A DNA stretch of 13,232 bases, taken from NCBI GenBank assembly GCA_024405635.1, contig JAKSOL010000035.1:1-13232 (forward strand), read 5' to 3'. This document shows positions 5,532-13,232 of this stretch, one piece after another. The position numbers were made by a program, and so were the translations under genes. Under the pieces are notes generated by a model. It searched no databases and was not told the origin of the DNA. It saw only the letters and a list, made by a program, of their open reading frames with translations. The DNA is from Salinivirgaceae bacterium. GTDB lineage: Bacteria > Bacteroidota > Bacteroidia > Bacteroidales > SZUA-534. How positions within the stretch are numbered: the stretch's first letter is position 1; each line of letters begins with the position of its first letter.

Positions 5532-6026
5532 GTTGACAAGATTACATCTTTAAGTACACGCTCGCCAACTTCGTCAAGTTCGCATTTCAAGCACCAATCG
5601 GTATAATCGGACATATTTACGCGCCGCCATAGATTGGAATTCTCATCATACTGGTAATACATCTCATCATAATCTTCGCTACTCCAAACTTTATCAGCAA
5701 CAAAATACCCCCATTAATCAATTTATAGTAGTATCTGTACGAACCTGGTGCATACTCGTACATACAAGATGCATCGTATTGCAATTCTTTCTTATTGTTT
5801 ACTAAATAGGTTAATTTATTACTTTGAACCTTATCCCAATTATTGCGGTTTTCCCAACATTTGTCTTCATAGATTTTTACTTCCCCCTCACTCTCATCCG
5901 CCAAGAACCCAAACAGCCCGCTGCCATGTTTCTCGTGCATCCAAGTCCACTGCCAGTGGTTGAGAGTGGTGCCACCGTTGTAATCCATCAGGTTGTCGGT
6001 GGTGCCTTCGGGGGCAAGGTAGTTGC
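5532..6026 (-). pseudogene. Degenerate third orphan CT cassette (metallopeptidase-module tail plus unique CT, frameshifted and truncated)
   Basis: Translates NYLAPEGTTDNLMDYNGGTTLNHWQW, matching the 8167..9924 and 10891..13179 proteins, then diverges. No HExxH and no genuine start. Apparent frameshift at the C5 run 5708-5712 joins ORF 5617..5988 to the frame of ORF 5477..5662, which runs into the terminator. No downstream partner gene. Confidence 0.7.
5947..6026. repeat. Copy C (80 bp) of the metallopeptidase-module direct repeat
   Basis: Aligns without gaps to 9673..9752 (5 mismatches by manual count) and 12034..12113 (9 mismatches). Confidence 0.93.
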
Positions 6027-6093
6027 CGCTTCGCTCTCGGTGCAGACGACGGAGTGGATTACATGGGAGAGGGTCGAGGAGATGGAAACTCTC

Positions 6094-6501
6094 TTATCTG
6101 CTGCCTTCAATTATCGCAAGCATCTCGGCTGGTGTAACAACGACAGGAGTTTTCGGAAAGTGTTTCTGATTGCCTGTTACCAGATATGCATCCTCTTTGC
6201 TTAGTGTAACCTCATAGAATATGCGGTCGTCCTCGTCTGGCATTATGGCATCGTATGGTATGCGTTCAGAGTCAATGCCATGCTCCTTTATTATGGAAAT
6301 CATAGCCTCGACAAGCTCTGGGGCAAACCGGAATTTGTCGCGCGAGAGGACCTCCTGGTACTCTGTTATTATATCGGAATGGTACAACGTAATAATCTTG
6401 CCTTCCAGAATACAAGATATAAGTTGCCTGATGATTGAAGTATCCGATTTGGACAGAAGTGCAGATACCAGAACGTTAGTATCTATTACGGCATGAATCA
6501 T
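6094..6501 (-). CDS. PIN-domain toxin of a type II toxin-antitoxin system (PIN_3-like family)
   Basis: 135 aa; AVIDTNVLVSALL, EYQEVLSRDKF, DEDDRIF and LVTGNQKHFP are conserved PIN acidic motifs; ATGA overlap with the upstream antitoxin. Confidence 0.9.
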   Translation of the reverse strand: MIHAVIDTNVLVSALLSKSDTSIIRQLISCILEGKIITLYHSDIITEYQEVLSRDKFRFAPELVEAMISIIKEHGIDSERIPYDAIMPDEDDRIFYEVTLSKEDAYLVTGNQKHFPKTPVVVTPAEMLAIIEGSR

Positions 6502-6794
6502 ACGGTCTTGTTTTTGCGTTCTGCCCTACATTCCGCAATTTCGGCATTGATTTCTTCAAGCGTCATTTCGGGTTCATTGAGGTGCGCTTGGCGATTCTCC
6601 TCCATAAGGCGATTGAAACGCTCTGTGGAAGTTTCCTTTACGCTTATCGTGAACGGGATACTGCGTGTTTCTGCTACCGCACGCATAAAGATGTTCATGG
6701 CGGTGTTAGCGCTCATTCCAAACTGTTTACAAAGACTGTCGAACGTTGCTTTCAGTTGTGCGTCTGTACGCACTGTCATTGTTGTTTGTGCCAT
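6498..6794 (-). CDS. RelB/DinJ-family antitoxin
   Basis: 98 aa; ribbon-helix-helix N-terminus TTMTVRTDAQLKATFDSLCKQFGMSANTAMNIF...IPF; C-terminal MTLEEINAEIAECR; 4-nt overlap with the PIN gene. Confidence 0.88.
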   Translation of the reverse strand: MAQTTMTVRTDAQLKATFDSLCKQFGMSANTAMNIFMRAVAETRSIPFTISVKETSTERFNRLMEENRQAHLNEPEMTLEEINAEIAECRAERKNKTV

Positions 6795-7187: not shown

Positions 7188-8150
7188 CTACTTAAGTCTA
7201 CTTTTATGTATAAATCCTCTCTTCTCATCATAAAATCTAACGACTTCAGCCCAATTCGTATCTTCTGTCCAATATACATAAACACCCTTGCCTTGAGGTA
7301 GAGTATATAATACCTCTGAACTTGCAGAAGGTTCCTTCCTGACATTAACAAAACCATCAGGGTCATTTACGACTTTCCTCTCTACCAATATTTTCTTCTT
7401 TACATCTACCAGTCTCATATATCCATCCGGCTCAAGTTTCAATACATATCTATTTGCCCAATTAGGATTAACATTCTCTTTCTCTTCCACGTCATCATCC
7501 TCGTCATCATCCTCGTCATCATACACAGAATTTTTGTAAGCCCACAAATCATACATATAAATAGTTTTGTCACGATCTATGAATGAACGTCTAGTATCTT
7601 GTGATAAATTAACTCCAGAAAGCATTTGCTGGGTTGACCTTTTGAATGTCAATAACTGAAAATAAGCAGCACCAGGCACATCGGGGTTATCAGGTCTATA
7701 AATAAATCTCAAGAGAATAGCGACAACATCATTTGGCAACTCTATCTTTGCTTCTGCATAAATAGATAACGACAATTGAGTTTCATCTCCAACATCTTCA
7801 AGATCTCGACAGGTCATCAAGAAATCAGAAGATATGAAAGATCCATCCTTCTTAAAGTGAGGAGGTGGTGTTTTCATATCATAAAGAGCATCAAATTGCT
7901 CATTCTTTATATGGTTGTATACATTCTTTGGCCCATTTTGAGGCTCCTCATACAAAATATTCCTTCGATATTCTTCTTCAGATATTGGTACCGGCAATTC
8001 ACCTTCTATGAATAGTCGATTTATGTCTCCCCACCCTATCGTAGCAATCTTAGCAAGAAATCTCTCAAACTCCTGCTGCATAGGAGTCTGTGAATTAACA
8101 CTTGTTTGCAACAATAGCACAACAATTATTGTCAATAACACTCGTTTCAT
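7188..8150 (-). CDS. Exported protein with C-terminal bacterial SH3 (SH3b) domain; putative immunity protein of the C39-like CT
   Basis: Start better placed at ATG 8150 (MKRVLLTIIVVLLLQTSVNS|Q, a signal peptide, 16 nt after the upstream stop) than at 8204. C-terminal VNDPDGFVNVRKEPSASSEV...NWAEV...RGFIHKSRLK (7191-7370) is SH3_3-like. Immunity role inferred from position only. Confidence 0.75.
   Translation of the reverse strand: MKRVLLTIIVVLLLQTSVNSQTPMQQEFERFLAKIATIGWGDINRLFIEGELPVPISEEEYRRNILYEEPQNGPKNVYNHIKNEQFDALYDMKTPPPHFKKDGSFISSDFLMTCRDLEDVGDETQLSLSIYAEAKIELPNDVVAILLRFIYRPDNPDVPGAAYFQLLTFKRSTQQMLSGVNLSQDTRRSFIDRDKTIYMYDLWAYKNSVYDDEDDDEDDDVEEKENVNPNWANRYVLKLEPDGYMRLVDVKKKILVERKVVNDPDGFVNVRKEPSASSEVLYTLPQGKGVYVYWTEDTNWAEVVRFYDEKRGFIHKSRLK
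7490..7522. repeat. 12-bp tandem repeat (CGTCATCATCCT x2.75) encoding acidic DDEDDDEDDD tract
   Basis: Units at 7490-7501, 7502-7513 and partial 7514-7522. Confidence 0.85.
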
Positions 8151-8166
8151 ACTTATTATTATTTGT

Positions 8167-9957
8167 TTACTGTTTCTTATTTTCTTTTTTTGAGAATACC
8201 ACATAATACTTCAACATGCCTCCATGAGCAGTATAATATGTAATATTTTCAGTAATAGGTTTACCATTCTTATCCACTACTACATTATTTTCTCGATCTG
8301 TTTTATTGCCAATTTCTGTTCTTGTGAGATATTCATTTCTTCCAGGTATTGACCTATCATTTATCCAATCCTTTACGTAATAGTCTTTTTTCTGATCTTC
8401 AGGCAAATCTTTTCCATCATTATCTATTAGGTCGGATTTATATATCTGGTTTCCTCTTACTTCATATGTGCCACCACGGCCGCTTGACTTTGACACATCT
8501 ATTTCGTCCCATGTTAGTGTACAATTTGAGCCATTATAATAACTTGAATTTTGAATATTTGTTCCATTAGTCGACCCTTGATACGACTCACCATGGTCAG
8601 GTTTTAATTCTCTGTATGCCATAGAAGATACATTGCCATAAGGGTCATCAACAACTATATTATCATTGCTAATTGCTTGAATCCTAACAATATGTCCTTT
8701 ATTGTTATACATTGAAAGAATTACACCTTTACCTTCACTTAATGCTTTATTTATAGCATTAATTGTATTTGTATTCTTTTTTGAAGAATTTACCATAGTT
8801 ACGGTCATTTCAACTCCTAGATAATTGGCAATTTGTTCCCACAATTCAGATTTCGTCCTATCTAAAGTAAAATTCTTCTTTACCCTAACAATATCCAATA
8901 TATCCTCAAAATCCTTATCTTTTTCAGAGGTAACATCAAACCCATCTTCCACAAGTTTATTATAAACATCTTCCTTAGAAATCCCCAACATTTCAAAAGC
9001 CATTGCCACTGACGTTAAGTTACACATGCGATCAGCTTCATATTTCCTATCTTTTTCTGTTTTTACTTCTTTACTCACAGATTTATTTTTATAACTTGGA
9101 TTATTATCCCTCTGATTATGATACGGCACTTTCTTCTGAAGCTCAAGATACAATTCTCCACGTTTTGTTTCGTCTTCAACATTTGAAATGCCGTTACGGA
9201 CTATTGCTATCTGTTGTGGTGTCAGTTCATTCATTGTCATCAGATATTCCCAACTTACAAACAACCAATTTGCAAGCTCATCAGCGTATTCTTCTTCAAC
9301 AAGTATTTCGAGTGCATTAGTGCTTTCGTTTTCAGTGTAGGTTGTAAATATAAACTTAATATACGAGCCTTCCTTTTCAAATGCATAATCACACTTTTCA
9401 ACTGCACAACTGCTTTTGTTACAGTTTATTGCCACATCTTCAAAAGCATGTTTCGCAATTGCTACATCTATTGTTTTGTCTCCCAATGGGTATTTGTGAG
9501 ACTCAAAGCCTATACCTTTAGTATCAATTGTGCAGAAGTTTTCCAGTTTGGCATTAGCATTGTGAATGGTTGCCAAAATTTGGTTCACTATGGCATCATT
9601 TTCATTCATCTCCGCCCCACTCTCGTCTTGCGCCCACTTCAGCCAAACTCTTTTGGGGGCATGAACATCTTGCCACTGCCAGTGGTTGAGAGTGGTACCA
9701 CCATTGTAGTCCATCAGGTTGTCGGTGGTGGCTTCGGGGGCTAGGTAGTTGCTTTGTGCAAAGGTGTGCTCCAAATGAAATGCTCCATGAGCTATCTCGT
9801 GGGCTATGGTACGGGCATTTGTGAGTTCTTTGTAGATAAAGCCATACTGATAGCCACGAGGCATATAGCCTGATGTTACGGTGTATCCATCGGTTTCGTT
9901 TAGGGTTACGGCATCTTCTACCATAAACAGATAGACGGTCTCGGCGTTAAGGCCTAG
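8167..9957 (-). CDS. Orphan toxin cassette: duplicated Zn-metallopeptidase module plus papain-like peptidase C39-like CT
   Basis: First ~106 aa nearly identical to an internal segment of the 10891..13179 ORF. CT has VPYHNQRDN (Q271), MCNLTSVAMAFEMLG (C301), GHIVRI (H411) and DDPYG (D427), numbered from ATG 9924, the C39-like catalytic set. The frame opens after TAG at 9958-9960; ATG 9924 is an internal Met of the carrier, so independent expression is uncertain. Confidence 0.75.
   Translation of the reverse strand, partial: LGLNAETVYLFMVEDAVTLNETDGYTVTSGYMPRGYQYGFIYKELTNARTIAHEIAHGAFHLEHTFAQSNYLAPEATTDNLMDYNGGTTLNHWQWQDVHAPKRVWLKWAQDESGAEMNENDAIVNQILATIHNANAKLENFCTIDTKGIGFESHKYPLGDKTIDVAIAKHAFEDVAINCNKSSCAVEKCDYAFEKEGSYIKFIFTTYTENESTNALEILVEEEYADELANWLFVSWEYLMTMNELTPQQIAIVRNGISNVEDETKRGELYLELQKKVPYHNQRDNNPSYKNKSVSKEVKTEKDRKYEADRMCNLTSVAMAFEMLGISKEDVYNKLVEDGFDVTSEKDKDFEDILDIVRVKKNFTLDRTKSELWEQIANYLGVEMTVTMVNSSKKNTNTINAINKALSEGKGVILSMYNNKGHIVRIQAISNDNIVVDDPYGNVSSMAYRELKPDHGESYQGSTNGTNIQNSSYYNGSNCTLTWDEIDVSKSSGRGGTYEVRGNQIYKSDLIDNDGKDLPEDQKKDYYVKDWINDRSIPGRNEYLTRTEIGNKTDRENNVVVDKNGKPITENITYYTAHGGMLKYYVVFSKKENKKQ
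9606..9942. repeat. Copy B (337 bp) of the metallopeptidase-module direct repeat
   Basis: Ungapped match to 11967..12303 (offset 2361); 16 mismatches by manual count, all within 9606-9742; 9743..9942 is 200 bp of perfect identity. Confidence 0.97.
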
Positions 9958-10019: not shown

Positions 10020-10922
10020 TCACTTTTCAATTTCTGTAACATAATAGAACCATAACAATCCCCCCATTTCACAGCCAATATCATAACCCAATTTATTTAT
10101 CACAAAAGATTCAACTTGTTTTAAATACTGCGCTTGGCCGCTACTAGATGCATTCTGATTGATGAAATCTTTTACGCTTTTGTTGGAATTCAAAATCAAA
10201 GGCACTTCATCTATATCATCAGTTGACACATAGTACAGACATTCATCTTGAATGTAATTTTTAAATAAATCACAGAATATTTGTTCTTGAAAATACAAAT
10301 GTCGCAACCAGTATATCAAAAACCACTTCGAACTGTAGCATGCACATGTATATCTATCATAATAATAAACATCCTTTTTATATTCCTCTATGAGCGATTC
10401 TATTATTCGATTGTTACATGTCCGAGATAGATTTTTAACAAAATACTCTTTTTCTGAAAAAACTACTGATGCGATAAATTTTTCCACTAAGTCATTAATC
10501 GTAACGCTATCCCCTAGCATCGCATTTGCCCACAAAGGATAGTTTTTATTAGGTTTTATCGTATCATTCACCATCGTCCTTAATAAAGGATATCTATCCC
10601 ATTGGATATCATAATTCTTTGCAAACTTTTTTATTAGCTCTTGATCTCCGTAATTAACCATGGTCAACTCCAAATCATACGAGTTATTACTTGAGTCTGC
10701 TATTGATGACAATGCTAAGCAATAGACGTCATTATCAGTAATATACACACTATGATTTGATTCAAGATTGTTCCTAATCAATTTGTCAATATCACTTCCT
10801 TTCTTTTTGATAATAACATCTTGAGCCAAAATACAATAACAATTAAAAAAGAGAAACGCTATACAACATATGCGTTTTATTACAAAGTCGCTAACGAACA
10901 ATTTTATCCCATTGTTTTTCAT
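10020..10922 (-). CDS. Exported hypothetical protein; putative immunity protein of the carrier's CT
   Basis: ~300-aa AT-rich ORF overlapping the end of the upstream ORF; hydrophobic N-terminus ending KRICCIAFLFFNCYCILA|Q. Start uncertain (10931 or 10922). No recognisable domain; role inferred from position. Confidence 0.6.
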   Translation of the reverse strand: MKNNGIKLFVSDFVIKRICCIAFLFFNCYCILAQDVIIKKKGSDIDKLIRNNLESNHSVYITDNDVYCLALSSIADSSNNSYDLELTMVNYGDQELIKKFAKNYDIQWDRYPLLRTMVNDTIKPNKNYPLWANAMLGDSVTINDLVEKFIASVVFSEKEYFVKNLSRTCNNRIIESLIEEYKKDVYYYDRYTCACYSSKWFLIYWLRHLYFQEQIFCDLFKNYIQDECLYYVSTDDIDEVPLILNSNKSVKDFINQNASSSGQAQYLKQVESFVINKLGYDIGCEMGGLLWFYYVTEIEK

Positions 10923-13232
10923 AACTATCATCCTTTCTAATTTTTAACTGTCTATTTCTCAATTTGCGAGCACCAGAACTATCGTAATAAAGCATAATAT
11001 TGTCTTGATTTACAGCATCTCCTCCAAGATCTAACAATCCAAAAGGACTACGATGAAGCCTCTCATGAACAATCACCTTATTTATGTCATTTGATTTATG
11101 TTTTATAATCTGTGGCGCGGTTGATATTCCTGCAAGGTTCCTCCAAACTAAAACAGTGTCAGAATATTCCCTTAAAACAGGGGTCCCAAGATATAAAGTA
11201 TCATTTTTTACATCTATTATGGTCAGTGTTTCTGTAGAAATATCTCCAATGAAAAGCTTATTAATCTGTTTATTCCTAATCTTATCATCTTGGTGTTTAA
11301 TAATAATTACCGTATCACCAACAGATATTGACCTTTTAAGTCTATATGATCTATGAATATCTGTATTTATCACCACAATGGATTCGTTCCTGTTGTTAGA
11401 ATAGTTTCCATTATTAAGTATACGTAATAATTCAGGATTATCACCTTCGGTGTAGATATCAAGAAATCCGTTATGGTTAATATCAAATGACAATTCATTT
11501 CTTGTAACTGAGAAATCCCCTATTCTAATAACAGCTTGACTAAACATTTTTTGTATGGCATCTTTATCTATATTGTCTAGATTCTGATTAATGCCATGTA
11601 TGTACAAGTTTGTACTAACTGAATTATATGAACAAATTCTTACTTTGTTTACAATATTTCCATTAATGCTATCCGTATGTATTTGAAGCATACTTGACCT
11701 AGCATAGTTAGTAAGAGATTTTATTGTTATATCATAGCCATCATGAACGCCAATGCTATCTACAACCATTTCAAAATCATTAGACACATTGTTGCTCATA
11801 CTGAAATACAACTTCACATTAGGGAAGTGAGTAGAGACATGAAATTTCGTTTCATTCATACATTCAACAGAAACATAATTATCATCGGTATTATCCATAA
11901 AATCTAAACCGTAATTTGTTTGTTCTGTCTCTGTAATAAAAACTTTTATTGTTTCATTATCAGTTCTCATCTCCGCCCCACTCTCCTCCTGCGCCCACTT
12001 GAGCCAAACTCTTTTGGGGTCATGCACGTCTTGCCACTGCCAGTGGTTCAATGTCTCACCACCGTTGTAGTCCATCAGGTTGTCGGTGGTGCCTTCGGGA
12101 GCAAGGTAGTTGCTTTGTGCAAAGGTGTGCTCCAAATGAAATGCTCCATGAGCTATCTCGTGGGCTATGGTACGGGCATTTGTGAGTTCTTTGTAGATAA
12201 AGCCATACTGATAGCCACGAGGCATATAGCCTGATGTTACGGTGTATCCATCGGTTTCGTTTAGGGTTACGGCATCTTCTACCATAAACAGATAGACGGT
12301 CTCATTATCGGTGCCTAATTCTTCGAGCTTGGTTATGGCAGCCTTTTGGTCGGTGTTATATACACCAATCACACCACTACCACCATGAGTAAAGTTGGTG
12401 CCGTTGGTGTAGTCTATCTCAATTGCTTCACTGACAGTTACATCAAAATCCACCATCAGTTTTGCAAAAATAGCATCAAGACCTTTCTTTAAGGTTTCAG
12501 CAGAAGGAACATTGCTTTTACCGATTGGTACTAGGCATATTTTGCGTGTTACTTTATCGTAACACATCACGTTAACTTTTCCTACTAAGGTTGTGTCTTT
12601 GTAGGCATATATGGCTAATGTATCATGGTCGCCAAATCCTGTTATGCTTAGTTCTCCGTTATTGCATATCACAGGCACACCTCGTTCCGTTTTGAAGGTG
12701 ATGTTTGTATAAGGGTCGGCATTCAGTTTTACTTTGGCATAACTCTCTATGCAAGCGTAAGCAGGTCGATAGTTGCCAGCTCCTATGCTTAGGAAACGTT
12801 GTGCGTAGTTTTGTGATGCTGTATGGCTTTTGTAGGAGTCGTAAGTATCAAACAAATAATCGCCTATGCTTGTGAATGTCACATTGCCCGTTGTAGCCAT
12901 CAGGCTGTCTTTTTCAGCACTGCGTTGGGCTAATAGTGTTTTATTGCCACCAGTTTGTTTGTATTCAGTGACGCCCATTAATTGCCCTTTGCTGTCTATC
13001 ACTAGTTGCTCGCCATTGGATGATTGTACTAGTGTGCGACTTTTTGAACCAACATTTGCTGTTATGTCTTTTTCATTTCCGTCGGCATCTACTGCTATAT
13101 AATGTCCTTTTTCGTTTATGTATATGGTTGCAAAGTTGGTGCTGAGCTTGACGGTGTCGCGTATGGTGTTGTCCACCACAATAATGCTATCGGCCTGCGC
13201 AAAGGTTTGGATTGGCGCAAGGAGGAAGAGGA
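10891..13232 (-). CDS. Putative polymorphic toxin carrier (5'-partial): conserved region, metzincin-like module, and variable CT with a second HExxH motif
   Basis: Frame is open from GTG 13179 to the window edge (..LFLLAPIQTFAQADSIIVVDN). HEIAHGAFHLEH (HEIAH at 12148-12162) plus Met-turn-like DNLMDY; junction ESGAE|M at 11970; CT of ~359 aa has HERLH (11053-11067), FGLLD, DNIMLY and QW. Confidence 0.75.
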   Translation of the reverse strand, partial: LFLLAPIQTFAQADSIIVVDNTIRDTVKLSTNFATIYINEKGHYIAVDADGNEKDITANVGSKSRTLVQSSNGEQLVIDSKGQLMGVTEYKQTGGNKTLLAQRSAEKDSLMATTGNVTFTSIGDYLFDTYDSYKSHTASQNYAQRFLSIGAGNYRPAYACIESYAKVKLNADPYTNITFKTERGVPVICNNGELSITGFGDHDTLAIYAYKDTTLVGKVNVMCYDKVTRKICLVPIGKSNVPSAETLKKGLDAIFAKLMVDFDVTVSEAIEIDYTNGTNFTHGGSGVIGVYNTDQKAAITKLEELGTDNETVYLFMVEDAVTLNETDGYTVTSGYMPRGYQYGFIYKELTNARTIAHEIAHGAFHLEHTFAQSNYLAPEGTTDNLMDYNGGETLNHWQWQDVHDPKRVWLKWAQEESGAEMRTDNETIKVFITETEQTNYGLDFMDNTDDNYVSVECMNETKFHVSTHFPNVKLYFSMSNNVSNDFEMVVDSIGVHDGYDITIKSLTNYARSSMLQIHTDSINGNIVNKVRICSYNSVSTNLYIHGINQNLDNIDKDAIQKMFSQAVIRIGDFSVTRNELSFDINHNGFLDIYTEGDNPELLRILNNGNYSNNRNESIVVINTDIHRSYRLKRSISVGDTVIIIKHQDDKIRNKQINKLFIGDISTETLTIIDVKNDTLYLGTPVLREYSDTVLVWRNLAGISTAPQIIKHKSNDINKVIVHERLHRSPFGLLDLGGDAVNQDNIMLYYDSSGARKLRNRQLKIRKDDSYEKQWDKIVR
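11967..12303. repeat. Copy A (337 bp) of the metallopeptidase-module direct repeat
   Basis: Direct repeat of 9606..9942; encodes ETVYLFMVED...HEIAH...WQW...ESGAEM. Confidence 0.97.

Follow-up and report, generated by a model that had tools for sequence, protein, structure and literature searches.

The window, that is, the whole stretch of 13,232 nucleotides analysed here, is a polymorphic-toxin locus of a Bacteroidales bacterium, with one toxin gene of the expressed type (gene A), two silent cassettes (B and C) and three different tips. The features to which we refer throughout, with the constant region of metzincin domain and acidic junction called the module, are as follows.

10891..13230 (-): toxin gene A (P0001), an ORF of 779 aa that is 5′-open at the contig end
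11995..12567 (-): metzincin-fold catalytic domain, residues ~222-412, placed by AlphaFold and a fold search
12127..12162 (-): predicted zinc-binding motif HEIAHGAFHLEH (H357, E358, H361, G362 and the third ligand H368)
12067..12081 (-): Met-turn NLMDY (N384-Y388), its conservation counted in 146 representatives
11971..11991 (-): acidic junction motif QEESGAE (Q414-E420), the constant part stopping after E420
10894..11970 (-): variable tip CT-A (residues 421-779), with a HERLH motif of its own at 11053-11067
10020..10931 (-): candidate immunity gene for CT-A (303 aa, N-terminal signal or anchor), assigned by position only
8167..9924 (-): orphan cassette B, the last ~110 residues of the module (from MVEDAV...) and tip CT-B
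7188..8204 (-): candidate immunity gene for CT-B (338 aa, signal peptide, C-terminal SH3_3 domain)
5617..6042 (-): orphan cassette C, a chimeric module remnant and a short tip, with the acidic motif at 5881-5901

Gene A runs from the tail of a signal peptide (...TFAQA|D) through beta-rich domains to the metzincin domain, the acidic junction and the variable C-terminal tip; the short-form relatives P0002 and P0009, which are complete, have full signal peptides at their start. From the zinc site to the junction the translation of P0001 reads ...TIAHEIAHGAFHLEHTFAQSNYLAPEGTTDNLMDYNGGETLNHWQWQDVHDPKRVWLKWAQEESGAEMRTDNE..., and positions 11968-12162 (-) encode HEIAHGAFHLEH...DNLMDY...WQW...QEESGAE|M. 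As the codon of H357 lies at 12160-12162 and that of M421 at 11968-11970 (both -), this interval covers exactly the stretch from HEIAH through the first variable residue. A single relative of CT-A was found (P0194, 51% identity), which stands behind the other module subtype, and CT-A otherwise leads, weakly, to zinc peptidases. The candidate immunity gene for this tip shares the last 41 nt of gene A, and Pfam and NCBIfam searches found no family match for its protein.

In cassette B, HEIAH lies at 9787-9801 and QDESGAE|M, its junction, at 9607-9630. Copies A and B are 95% identical in DNA over 300 nt (11967-12266 vs 9606-9905), a match that stops at the GAEM codon, and the tip beyond it, CT-B, matches Peptidase_C39_2 (E 1.2e-8). 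In copy C (ORF 5617-5988) the DNA alignment leaves only SNYLAPEG...WQW in common with A and B, and the sequence after WQW is TWMHEKHGSGLFGFLADESEGE|V. The first-pass annotation had noticed that the acidic motif persists in copy C despite the divergence of its DNA. The diverged tail belongs to a second module subtype, which the genome has on contigs C4 and C14 as well, so that copy C is a chimera and not a decayed copy. The distance of 21-22 residues from WQW to the boundary, given at the same time for the three copies, is correct as well, with 21 in A and B and 22 in C.

The metzincin domain

A fold search was needed because the family profile gave no metallopeptidase when run against PDB sequences (one chance match, E 0.2). 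Residues 222-412 are modelled by AlphaFold with pLDDT mostly above 85 (two models), and VIA-align superposes them on adamalysin (1dth, Z 13.3, 160 aa, 3.3 Å) and on ulilysin (2cki, Z 12.9, 167 aa, 2.9 Å). An unbiased search of the PDB (VIA-align, 48,161 chains) returned metzincins at all of ranks 1-24 (Z 9.5-13.3), and Foldseek and a second VIA-align run agree on this fold. By these alignments the domain has the catalytic fold of the metzincins, which is defined by a five-stranded sheet, an active-site helix and a C-terminal helix below a Met-turn. A likeness of the pro-domain to that of profragilysin was considered and dropped: Foldseek aligns 313-334 columns, but with an rmsd of ~16 Å and a TM of 0.26-0.35, and VIA-align aligns the catalytic domain only.

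At the level of sequence, no Pfam or NCBIfam model (including Reprolysin_3/4/5 and Peptidase_M43) reaches its curated cut-off for the module. The window protein scores 14.4 bits against Reprolysin_5, for which the Pfam gathering threshold is 27; sub-threshold matches to this model occur in 9 of 19 family members (best E 4.4e-4) and to Peptidase_M43 in 3 of the 19, while the metzincin model TIGR03952 is matched below threshold in 8 of 32.

Conservation was assessed in a set of 150 cluster representatives, 146 of which could be aligned and were used for the residue counts. H357, E358, H361, G362, H368, F370, N384, D387, Y388 and W399 are invariant (146/146), L385 occurs in 145 of the 146 and M386 in 140, with Leu in the other six, and H365 is variable (N in 55, G in 38, R in 13). 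The loop past the Met-turn (389-397) has H or K at 396, and the edge strand is placed at ~332-335. The Met-turn-like DNLM that the first-pass annotation had pointed out can be recognized in these counts, with N384, D387 and Y388 among the invariant residues and M386 close to them. The family motif is HExxHGxxxLxH and not the metzincin HExxHxxGxxH/D, with Gly directly after the second His and the third His one residue further along. This longer spacing, also noticed in that annotation, is a trait of the family, as HExxHx6H is found in 148 of the 150 representatives (HExxHx7H in the other two), and since the three His and the Glu are present the motif has changed in spacing without being lost. 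The sole clear catalytic loss is NEICH in P0029, an N-terminally truncated, orphan-like copy.

Judged from sequence and structural models, the domain truly has the metzincin fold, its zinc site and Met-turn are complete, and it is predicted to be active, with H357, H361 and H368 as predicted zinc ligands, E358 as predicted general base and M386-D-Y388 as predicted Met-turn. The metzincins gain with it a distinct branch with HExxHx6H spacing. Its HTF after the third His and its M-x-Y turn are features that we take to be pappalysin-like.

The acidic junction and the tips behind it

The junction has the consensus [WFL]-x-Q-D-E-E-E-G-E and lies ~8-15 residues past the last helix of the domain, the tip beginning with the next residue. 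Information amounts to 2.2-3.5 bits per position at 414-420 and to at most 0.87 bits from 421 on. Among the 146 representatives, position 416 is E in 117 and D in 26, position 418 is E in 108, D in 18 and G in 16, and position 420 is E in 114; position 421, the first past the boundary, varies (M 25, A 23, N 20, S 20, Y 13). A lack of conservation of the junction among homologues had been named beforehand as one ground for refuting the proposal of cleavage at this site, and the motif is in fact kept across relatives of only 30-45% identity, with conservation stopping exactly at the boundary. In AlphaFold model 1 the linker has pLDDT below 50 from residue 407, and in model 2 the mean pLDDT is 61 for residues 415-424 and below 50 beyond; the assignment of residues 420-422 in this block of model 2 as a short strand is a weak hint in favour of self-cleavage. 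Conservation of the motif in a stretch that lacks a confident AlphaFold model suggests a functional constraint and not one of packing. A complex prediction of the catalytic domain (215-406) with the linker peptide (407-440) and zinc had a score of 0.00, which weighs neither way.

The module always stands directly before the variable part, at least 200 aa follow it in 171 of 189 proteins, and the ten proteins that end just past the junction are mostly fragments. When 140 proteins are clustered by BLAST, their modules fall into 1 cluster and their tips into 42. A given toxin tip can occur with different module subtypes, the join falling exactly behind the last Glu, and one tip family (WTTDGHYY...) follows the terminal Glu in no fewer than four tail subtypes. 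Peptidoglycan hydrolases (C39-like, M15_4, CHAP) are among the tips of the family. The sharp boundary between constant and variable parts can be explained by recombination alone.

A large family that includes the TANFOR-class toxins

The module is the universal pre-toxin domain of a very large Bacteroidota family, which includes published TANFOR-class toxins. The family comprises at least 1,280 clusters in Bacteroidota (profile E<=1e-10, clusters at 50% identity), and the module profile matches both of the Ohtaekwangia koreensis TANFOR proteins of Jana et al. 2020 (E 1.7e-90 and 8.4e-128), in which the module is at the expected place. Cultured bacteria that carry the module include O. koreensis DSM 25262, Marivirga tractuosa and Breznakibacter xylanolyticus DSM 6779. 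Among 32 long relatives, 14 have an N-terminal match to TIGR02542, all below the 67-bit cut-off. P0001 has no match to this model of the TANFOR domain, being a short form without the N-terminal ~470 aa that include TANFOR. A TIGR02542 search of 151 genomes of the phylum at E<=1e-8 gave no matches, the controls likewise being without a match.

In the sections of the paper drawn on here, the TANFOR class is described as having a Sec signal peptide, an FN3/Ig-like middle, variable C-terminal toxins and immunity genes downstream, with SprB and CTD enrichment near the toxins (Jana et al. 2020; PMC7073777). As far as those sections go, this layout matches the module loci in export signal, FN3/Ig-like middle, variable tips, immunity genes and SprB-repeat/T9SS-CTD neighbours, and the present locus has the variable tips, downstream candidate immunity genes and orphan cassettes of the class. 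Three neighbours of the module are conserved across Bacteroidota families: one combines SprB repeats with a T9SS sorting domain, one (~570 aa) is a putative outer-membrane barrel and one (~670 aa) is an FN3 protein. The main text of Jana et al. 2020 contains no occurrence of metallo, protease, peptidase or zinc (PMC7073777), and in its Supplemental Data 1, among the matches listed, metallo or Peptidase_M appears only in the neighbour-gene columns or as a non-catalytic M14-associated domain (PMC7073777). A link of MicroscillaN to the module was not found in the portions of the literature drawn on.

The toxin class is already published, TANFOR-class toxins having so far been described by their N-terminal domain and tips only. 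As a search marker the module is the better choice, covering at least 1,280 clusters with short forms without TANFOR among them, and the rule that the tip starts after the terminal Glu helps in mining toxins and immunity genes from the Bacteroidota of guts, soils and waters.

Possible roles of the protease, and known release systems

The best-supported reading is that self-cleavage by the metzincin near the acidic motif frees the tip, which is plausible and, in our judgement, evenly poised between right and wrong. The toxin would first be exported by Sec and then displayed on the surface or delivered. The metzincin, acting on its own polypeptide or on a neighbouring molecule, would then make a cut at the acidic motif or no more than a few residues away from it, thus freeing the toxin tip; a cut just before the conserved hydrophobic residue 412 (W/F/L) would be equally possible. 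All that the enzyme recognizes would belong to the constant, non-primed side of the junction, so that any cassette recombined behind the motif would stay cleavable, and the 3′ half of the module may double as a homology arm in cassette exchange. Metzincins usually select a hydrophobic P1′ residue, and variability at this position, as seen just past the boundary, is uncommon among their cleavage sites. In the sections used here, Zhang et al. 2012 infer releasing peptidases, including the zincin PVC-metallopeptidase, from their position directly before the variable tip (PMC3482391), and the same placement of a peptidase domain directly before a variable toxin domain is found in the module family. 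Activation of a toxin by a peptidase from the same locus, in this case a secreted S8 peptidase, has been demonstrated in S. aureus, according to the part of the report that we draw on (PMC13556192).

The wider proposal is that TANFOR-type contact toxins across Bacteroidota are all set free by one previously unrecognised family of metzincins, which would cut their own chain at a fixed QDEEEGE tag on the constant side and so release, without a scar, whatever toxin cassette has recombined behind it; it may well hold, though we lean slightly against it. If true, it would (i) give the first metzincin known as a self-releasing peptidase in polymorphic toxins and (ii) offer, for the first time, a way into the mechanism of a toxin system that is tied to type IX secretion and SprB-like adhesins and is possibly exported, in a two-partner-like manner, via the conserved barrel protein of ~570 aa. 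With a metzincin that appears from its sequence to be active and a universal acidic motif before the tip, the mechanism can be tested with one point mutant.

It is also conceivable, if rather unlikely, that an active metzincin works on other substrates and that the acidic motif only marks where the constant region ends, whether as a flexible joint, as a boundary for recombination or as a site that another factor reads; candidate substrates would be envelope proteins of the target cell, cut to let the tip through, or partner proteins of the producer, for instance the SprB-like adhesin and the ~570- and ~670-aa proteins. The neighbour genes conserved across Bacteroidota families suggest delivery roles for the constant region, so that the protease could act on such substrates, and the SprB/CTD enrichment, as given in the sections cited, points the same way (PMC7073777). 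The variable P1′ at the boundary, a linker without confident docking in the models and the peptidoglycan hydrolases among the tips, which must cross the target outer membrane, also fit this reading. However, it leaves unexplained why a run of six linker positions holds 2.2-3.5 bits across relatives at 30-45% identity and why the protease always abuts the tip.

That the acidic tail regulates the protease, as a latency or pseudo-substrate segment whose carboxylates would reach the zinc, much like the aspartate switch of some metzincin zymogens, or by binding Ca2+, with any release taking place elsewhere or by another enzyme, seems improbable to us. The Glu/Asp run is within reach of the catalytic domain, and model 2 has moderate confidence and some secondary structure at 416-422; yet the models give no sign of zinc contact, the metzincin latency segments known to us are N-terminal pro-peptides, and the exact position of the motif at the cassette boundary is a better fit to a role in processing or joining. 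Strongly disfavoured, finally, is the view that the HExxH arose by chance, or that the domain is inactive and survives only as an arm for recombination: HExxH alone is common and the orphan copies hold only the 3′ part of the domain, but the full metzincin fold is present, and zinc ligands, general base and the Asp and Tyr of the Met-turn are kept in 146/146 representatives and its Met in 140/146.

Compared with known metzincins, the module is like adamalysin/ADAM and the pappalysins (ulilysin, mirolysin) in its catalytic fold (Z 11.5-13.3 over 160-167 residues) and shares with them HExxH, the third His and the Met-turn, at a sequence identity of 10-16% only; those are free secreted proteases, whereas the module is embedded in a toxin carrier. 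Rhs (DPxG...) and CdiA (VENN) proteins resemble it in having a short conserved motif as the exact boundary between constant and variable parts and as recombination point, from which its acidic Glu run differs in sequence and chemistry. The Rhs motif is in addition a self-cleavage site, by aspartyl autoproteolysis, and VENN is not, to our knowledge, known as a cleavage site. The PVC-metallopeptidase is, like the module, a constant zinc peptidase directly N-terminal of highly variable tips, for which autoproteolysis was inferred, and is described in the sections used here as a small zincin with HExxHxxQ...E that is tied to phage-tail-like injection systems (PMC3482391). Membership of the module in PVC-metallopeptidase/Tox-MPTase was rejected, as the signature given there (HExxHxxQ-E) differs and there are no Pfam matches. 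The module is set apart from the PVC domain by its metzincin HExxHx6H and Met-turn, its place in Sec-exported, T9SS-associated toxins and its defined acidic junction motif.

The toxin locus and its module copies

The window is one entire contig (C29), and its locus has the standard polymorphic toxin layout of toxin gene, immunity genes and silent cassettes.

Features of the locus (window coordinates)
10891-13230, minus strand: gene A (protein P0001, 779 aa), its 5′ end cut by the right end of the contig
10020-10931: ORF after gene A, 303 aa, with an N-terminal signal or anchor
8167-9924: ORF of copy B, sharing 300 nt with copy A at 95% identity (9606-9905 vs 11967-12266)
7188-8204: ORF after copy B, a candidate immunity protein of 338 aa with a signal peptide and a C-terminal SH3_3 (bacterial SH3) domain
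5617-5988: ORF of copy C (cassette 5617-6042), sharing with A and B only SNYLAPEG...WQW, then reading TWMHEKHGSGLFGFLADESEGE and, past the boundary, V

The range 11968-12162 has the codons of H357 (12160-12162) and M421 (11968-11970) at its two ends and translates as HEIAHGAFHLEHTFAQSNYLAPEGTTDNLMDYNGGETLNHWQWQDVHDPKRVWLKWAQEESGAE followed, past the boundary, by M. In the DNA alignment, the match between copies A and B begins near ETVYLFMVEDA and stops at the GAEM codon. The tail of copy C is of a second module subtype, which paralogues on contigs C4 and C14 also carry, so that copy C is a recombinant between the two module subtypes of this genome; the switch falls immediately after WQW, and the chimera is evidence for recombination within the module. 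What the first-pass annotation had read from the sequence holds throughout, including a conserved/variable boundary 21-22 residues after WQW.

The tip of copy B (CT-B) matches Peptidase_C39_2 (E 1.2e-8), while family-model searches found no family for that of gene A (CT-A). CT-A has its own HERLH motif (window 11053-11067, P0001 residues 722-726) and may itself be a zinc-peptidase toxin; its single relative found, in protein P0194, is 51% identical. Protein-atlas leads for CT-A (scores 0.80-0.90) point to metzincin-type families and to clusters with VgrG or Rhs fusions.

The candidate immunity protein of cassette B carries a long acidic run, DDEDDDEDDDVEEKE. The interval between its gene and cassette C (6094-6794) contains a gene for a PIN-domain toxin (6094-6501; PIN_3, E 4.7e-19), overlapped on its upstream side by a 98-aa ORF (6498-6794); together they resemble a toxin-antitoxin pair that has been inserted. 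Eight copies of the module occur in this genome, spread over four contigs (C4:2-9190, C8:57610-62418 and C14:54383-56314 among the sites); C4 contributes a 1,301-aa gene with two cassettes, and C8 a gene of 1,603 aa. Since the copies are mostly at contig ends, these repeats probably broke the assembly. A fragment in a horse-faeces Paludibacteraceae MAG (L077:3-164), 96% identical to P0001 residues 368-421, points to a close relative of this organism in herbivore guts.

Fold and active site of the pre-toxin domain

No Pfam or NCBIfam model reached threshold for the module of P0001, and the family profile had no match among PDB sequences. AlphaFold models were built for residues 1-470 (model 1; 40-row alignment, mean pLDDT 79.7) and 215-440 (model 2; 82 rows, mean pLDDT 85.9). 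Foldseek matched profragilysin, ADAMTS, adamalysins and archaemetzincin (E 2e-6 to 3e-4), and VIA-align on this list gave adamalysins at Z 12.4 over model residues 222-412. In a VIA-align comparison with 48,161 chains, independent of Foldseek, ranks 1-24 were metzincins only, among them atrolysin (1dth, Z 13.3, 160 aa, 3.3 A), ulilysin (2cki, Z 12.9, 167 aa, 2.9 A, 16% identity), ADAM8, PAPP-A, mirolysin, fragilysin and archaemetzincin. Sub-threshold sequence matches to Reprolysin_5 (9/19 members), Peptidase_M43 (3/19) and TIGR03952, a Bacteroides metzincin lipoprotein model (8/32), agree with this fold. By its predicted structure, the pre-toxin domain is a real metzincin.

When all 1.84 billion cluster representatives were scanned with HMMER, 1,793 clusters matched at E<=1e-3 (1,280 at E<=1e-10, 102 at E<=1e-30); nearly every match stops at position 204-207 of the 208-residue query, which is where the junction lies. 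Among 150 listed proteins, 148 read HExxHx6H and two HExxHx7H. In the 146 of these that were aligned (two of those left out being too short after the motif), H357, E358, H361, G362, H368, F370, N384, D387, Y388 and W399 are invariant, and M386 is kept in 140. The longer spacing proposed in the first-pass annotation is thereby borne out, the third ligand, H368, lying one residue beyond the canonical HExxHxxGxxH position; H365, which its string might suggest as a ligand, is not conserved. An initial search had found HExxH in 50 of 52 proteins; one of the others is an N-terminal fragment ending before the module, and the second reads NEICH. This replacement of HEICH, in the N-terminally truncated, orphan-like copy P0029 (residues 1-120), is the sole clear zinc-ligand loss seen and fits relaxed constraint in silent cassettes. 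Judged from the aligned residues, the active site is intact and invariant.

The acidic junction and proposed release of the tip

The acidic motif noticed at the boundary is conserved among homologues: positions 414-420 carry 2.2-3.5 bits each (n=146), falling to 0.87 at 421 and lower still beyond. The commonest residues are D 85 and E 25 at 415, E 117 and D 26 at 416, E 80 and S 29 at 417, E 108, D 18 and G 16 at 418, G 93, A 27 and S 23 at 419, and E 114 at 420; with a conserved hydrophobic residue at 412 (W 83, F 37, L 18), the consensus is [WFL]-x-Q-D-E-E-E-G-E, then anything. At least four different tail subtypes have, behind their terminal Glu, a tip of the family starting WTTDGHYY, and CT-A recurs in P0194 behind the other module subtype, homology resuming a few residues past the motif. 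For 140 proteins that keep the full module and have a tip of 150 aa or longer, BLAST clustering puts all the modules together and divides the tips among 42 clusters; at least 200 residues follow the junction in 171 of 189 proteins.

The metzincin domain would cut at or near this motif and free the tip, a self-release to which we give an even chance. It is suggested by the pre-toxin position, which fits the positional rule that Zhang et al. 2012 (PMC3482391) apply to HINT, caspase-like, papain-like and PVC-metallopeptidase domains, and by the strong conservation of a junction that lies in a stretch without confident modelling. If recognition took place entirely within the constant part, any cargo could be accommodated. 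Self-release is disfavoured by the variable P1′, if the cut is after E420, and by the low pLDDT of the linker, which in model 1 stays under 50 from residue 407 onward and in model 2 has 10-residue block means of 76 (405-414), 61 (415-424) and about 42 (425-434), residues 416-419 being modelled as a short helix and 420-422 as a strand. With a cut before hydrophobic residue 412 the tip would keep an acidic tag, and the usual metzincin preference would be matched better.

The same intact active site could belong to a protease acting on other substrates, for which the variable P1′ leaves room and to which the conserved junction lends nothing; this we regard as rather unlikely. A regulatory role of the acidic tail is improbable, and an inactive scaffold, given the invariant residues, is barely credible; a small remainder of the probability is assigned to none of these readings. 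Self-release at or near the junction is the reading retained here.

The toxin class and comparison with known systems

In the long relatives a signal peptide and a conserved YPVQVTTQLTPPYS-like stretch make up the N-terminus, with FN3 domains and an HExxH near residue 830-880 further on; 14 of 32 match TIGR02542, the N-terminal domain of the published TANFOR toxins, all below the curated cut-off. The protein studied here is a short form with its own signal peptide and without the TANFOR and FN3 part, its residues 7-420 being homologous to about 480-900 of long forms. Two TANFOR toxins of Ohtaekwangia koreensis appear in Supplemental Data 1 of Jana et al. 2020 (PMC7073777), and both carry the module at the expected position (E 1.7e-90 and 8.4e-128).

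Many family loci contain a conserved pair of genes for a signal-peptide protein of ~570-580 aa and an FN3 protein of ~670-680 aa (e.g. L015:14503-18226; L072:6168-7883; own genome C14:48201-51982, equal to L011:202-3983). The former has weak outer-membrane barrel model matches in one of three copies scanned; in Cytophagales the 570-aa gene is directly upstream of the toxin, with a protein of ~1,540 aa downstream. These genes could form a dedicated export or presentation apparatus. Of 74 loci, at least 11 encode directly upstream of the toxin gene a 2,600-2,800 aa protein with SprB repeats and Por_Secre_tail, the T9SS C-terminal sorting domain (e.g. L015:618-8489, L034:466-8490).

SprB-repeat/T9SS-CTD genes are likewise noted as neighbours of TANFOR toxins by Jana et al. 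2020 (PMC7073777), as in the loci here. The words metallo, protease, peptidase and zinc appear nowhere in the main text of that paper, and its table has, among the matches listed, no catalytic metallopeptidase within TANFOR proteins; no description of a metzincin in TANFOR-type toxins was found in the literature searched, subscription papers lying outside its scope. The toxin class and the concept of a releasing peptidase are already known. New are the recognition of the pre-toxin domain as a metzincin, its near-universal occurrence among the recovered proteins, TANFOR-less short forms included, the HExxHx6H variant and the acidic boundary motif.
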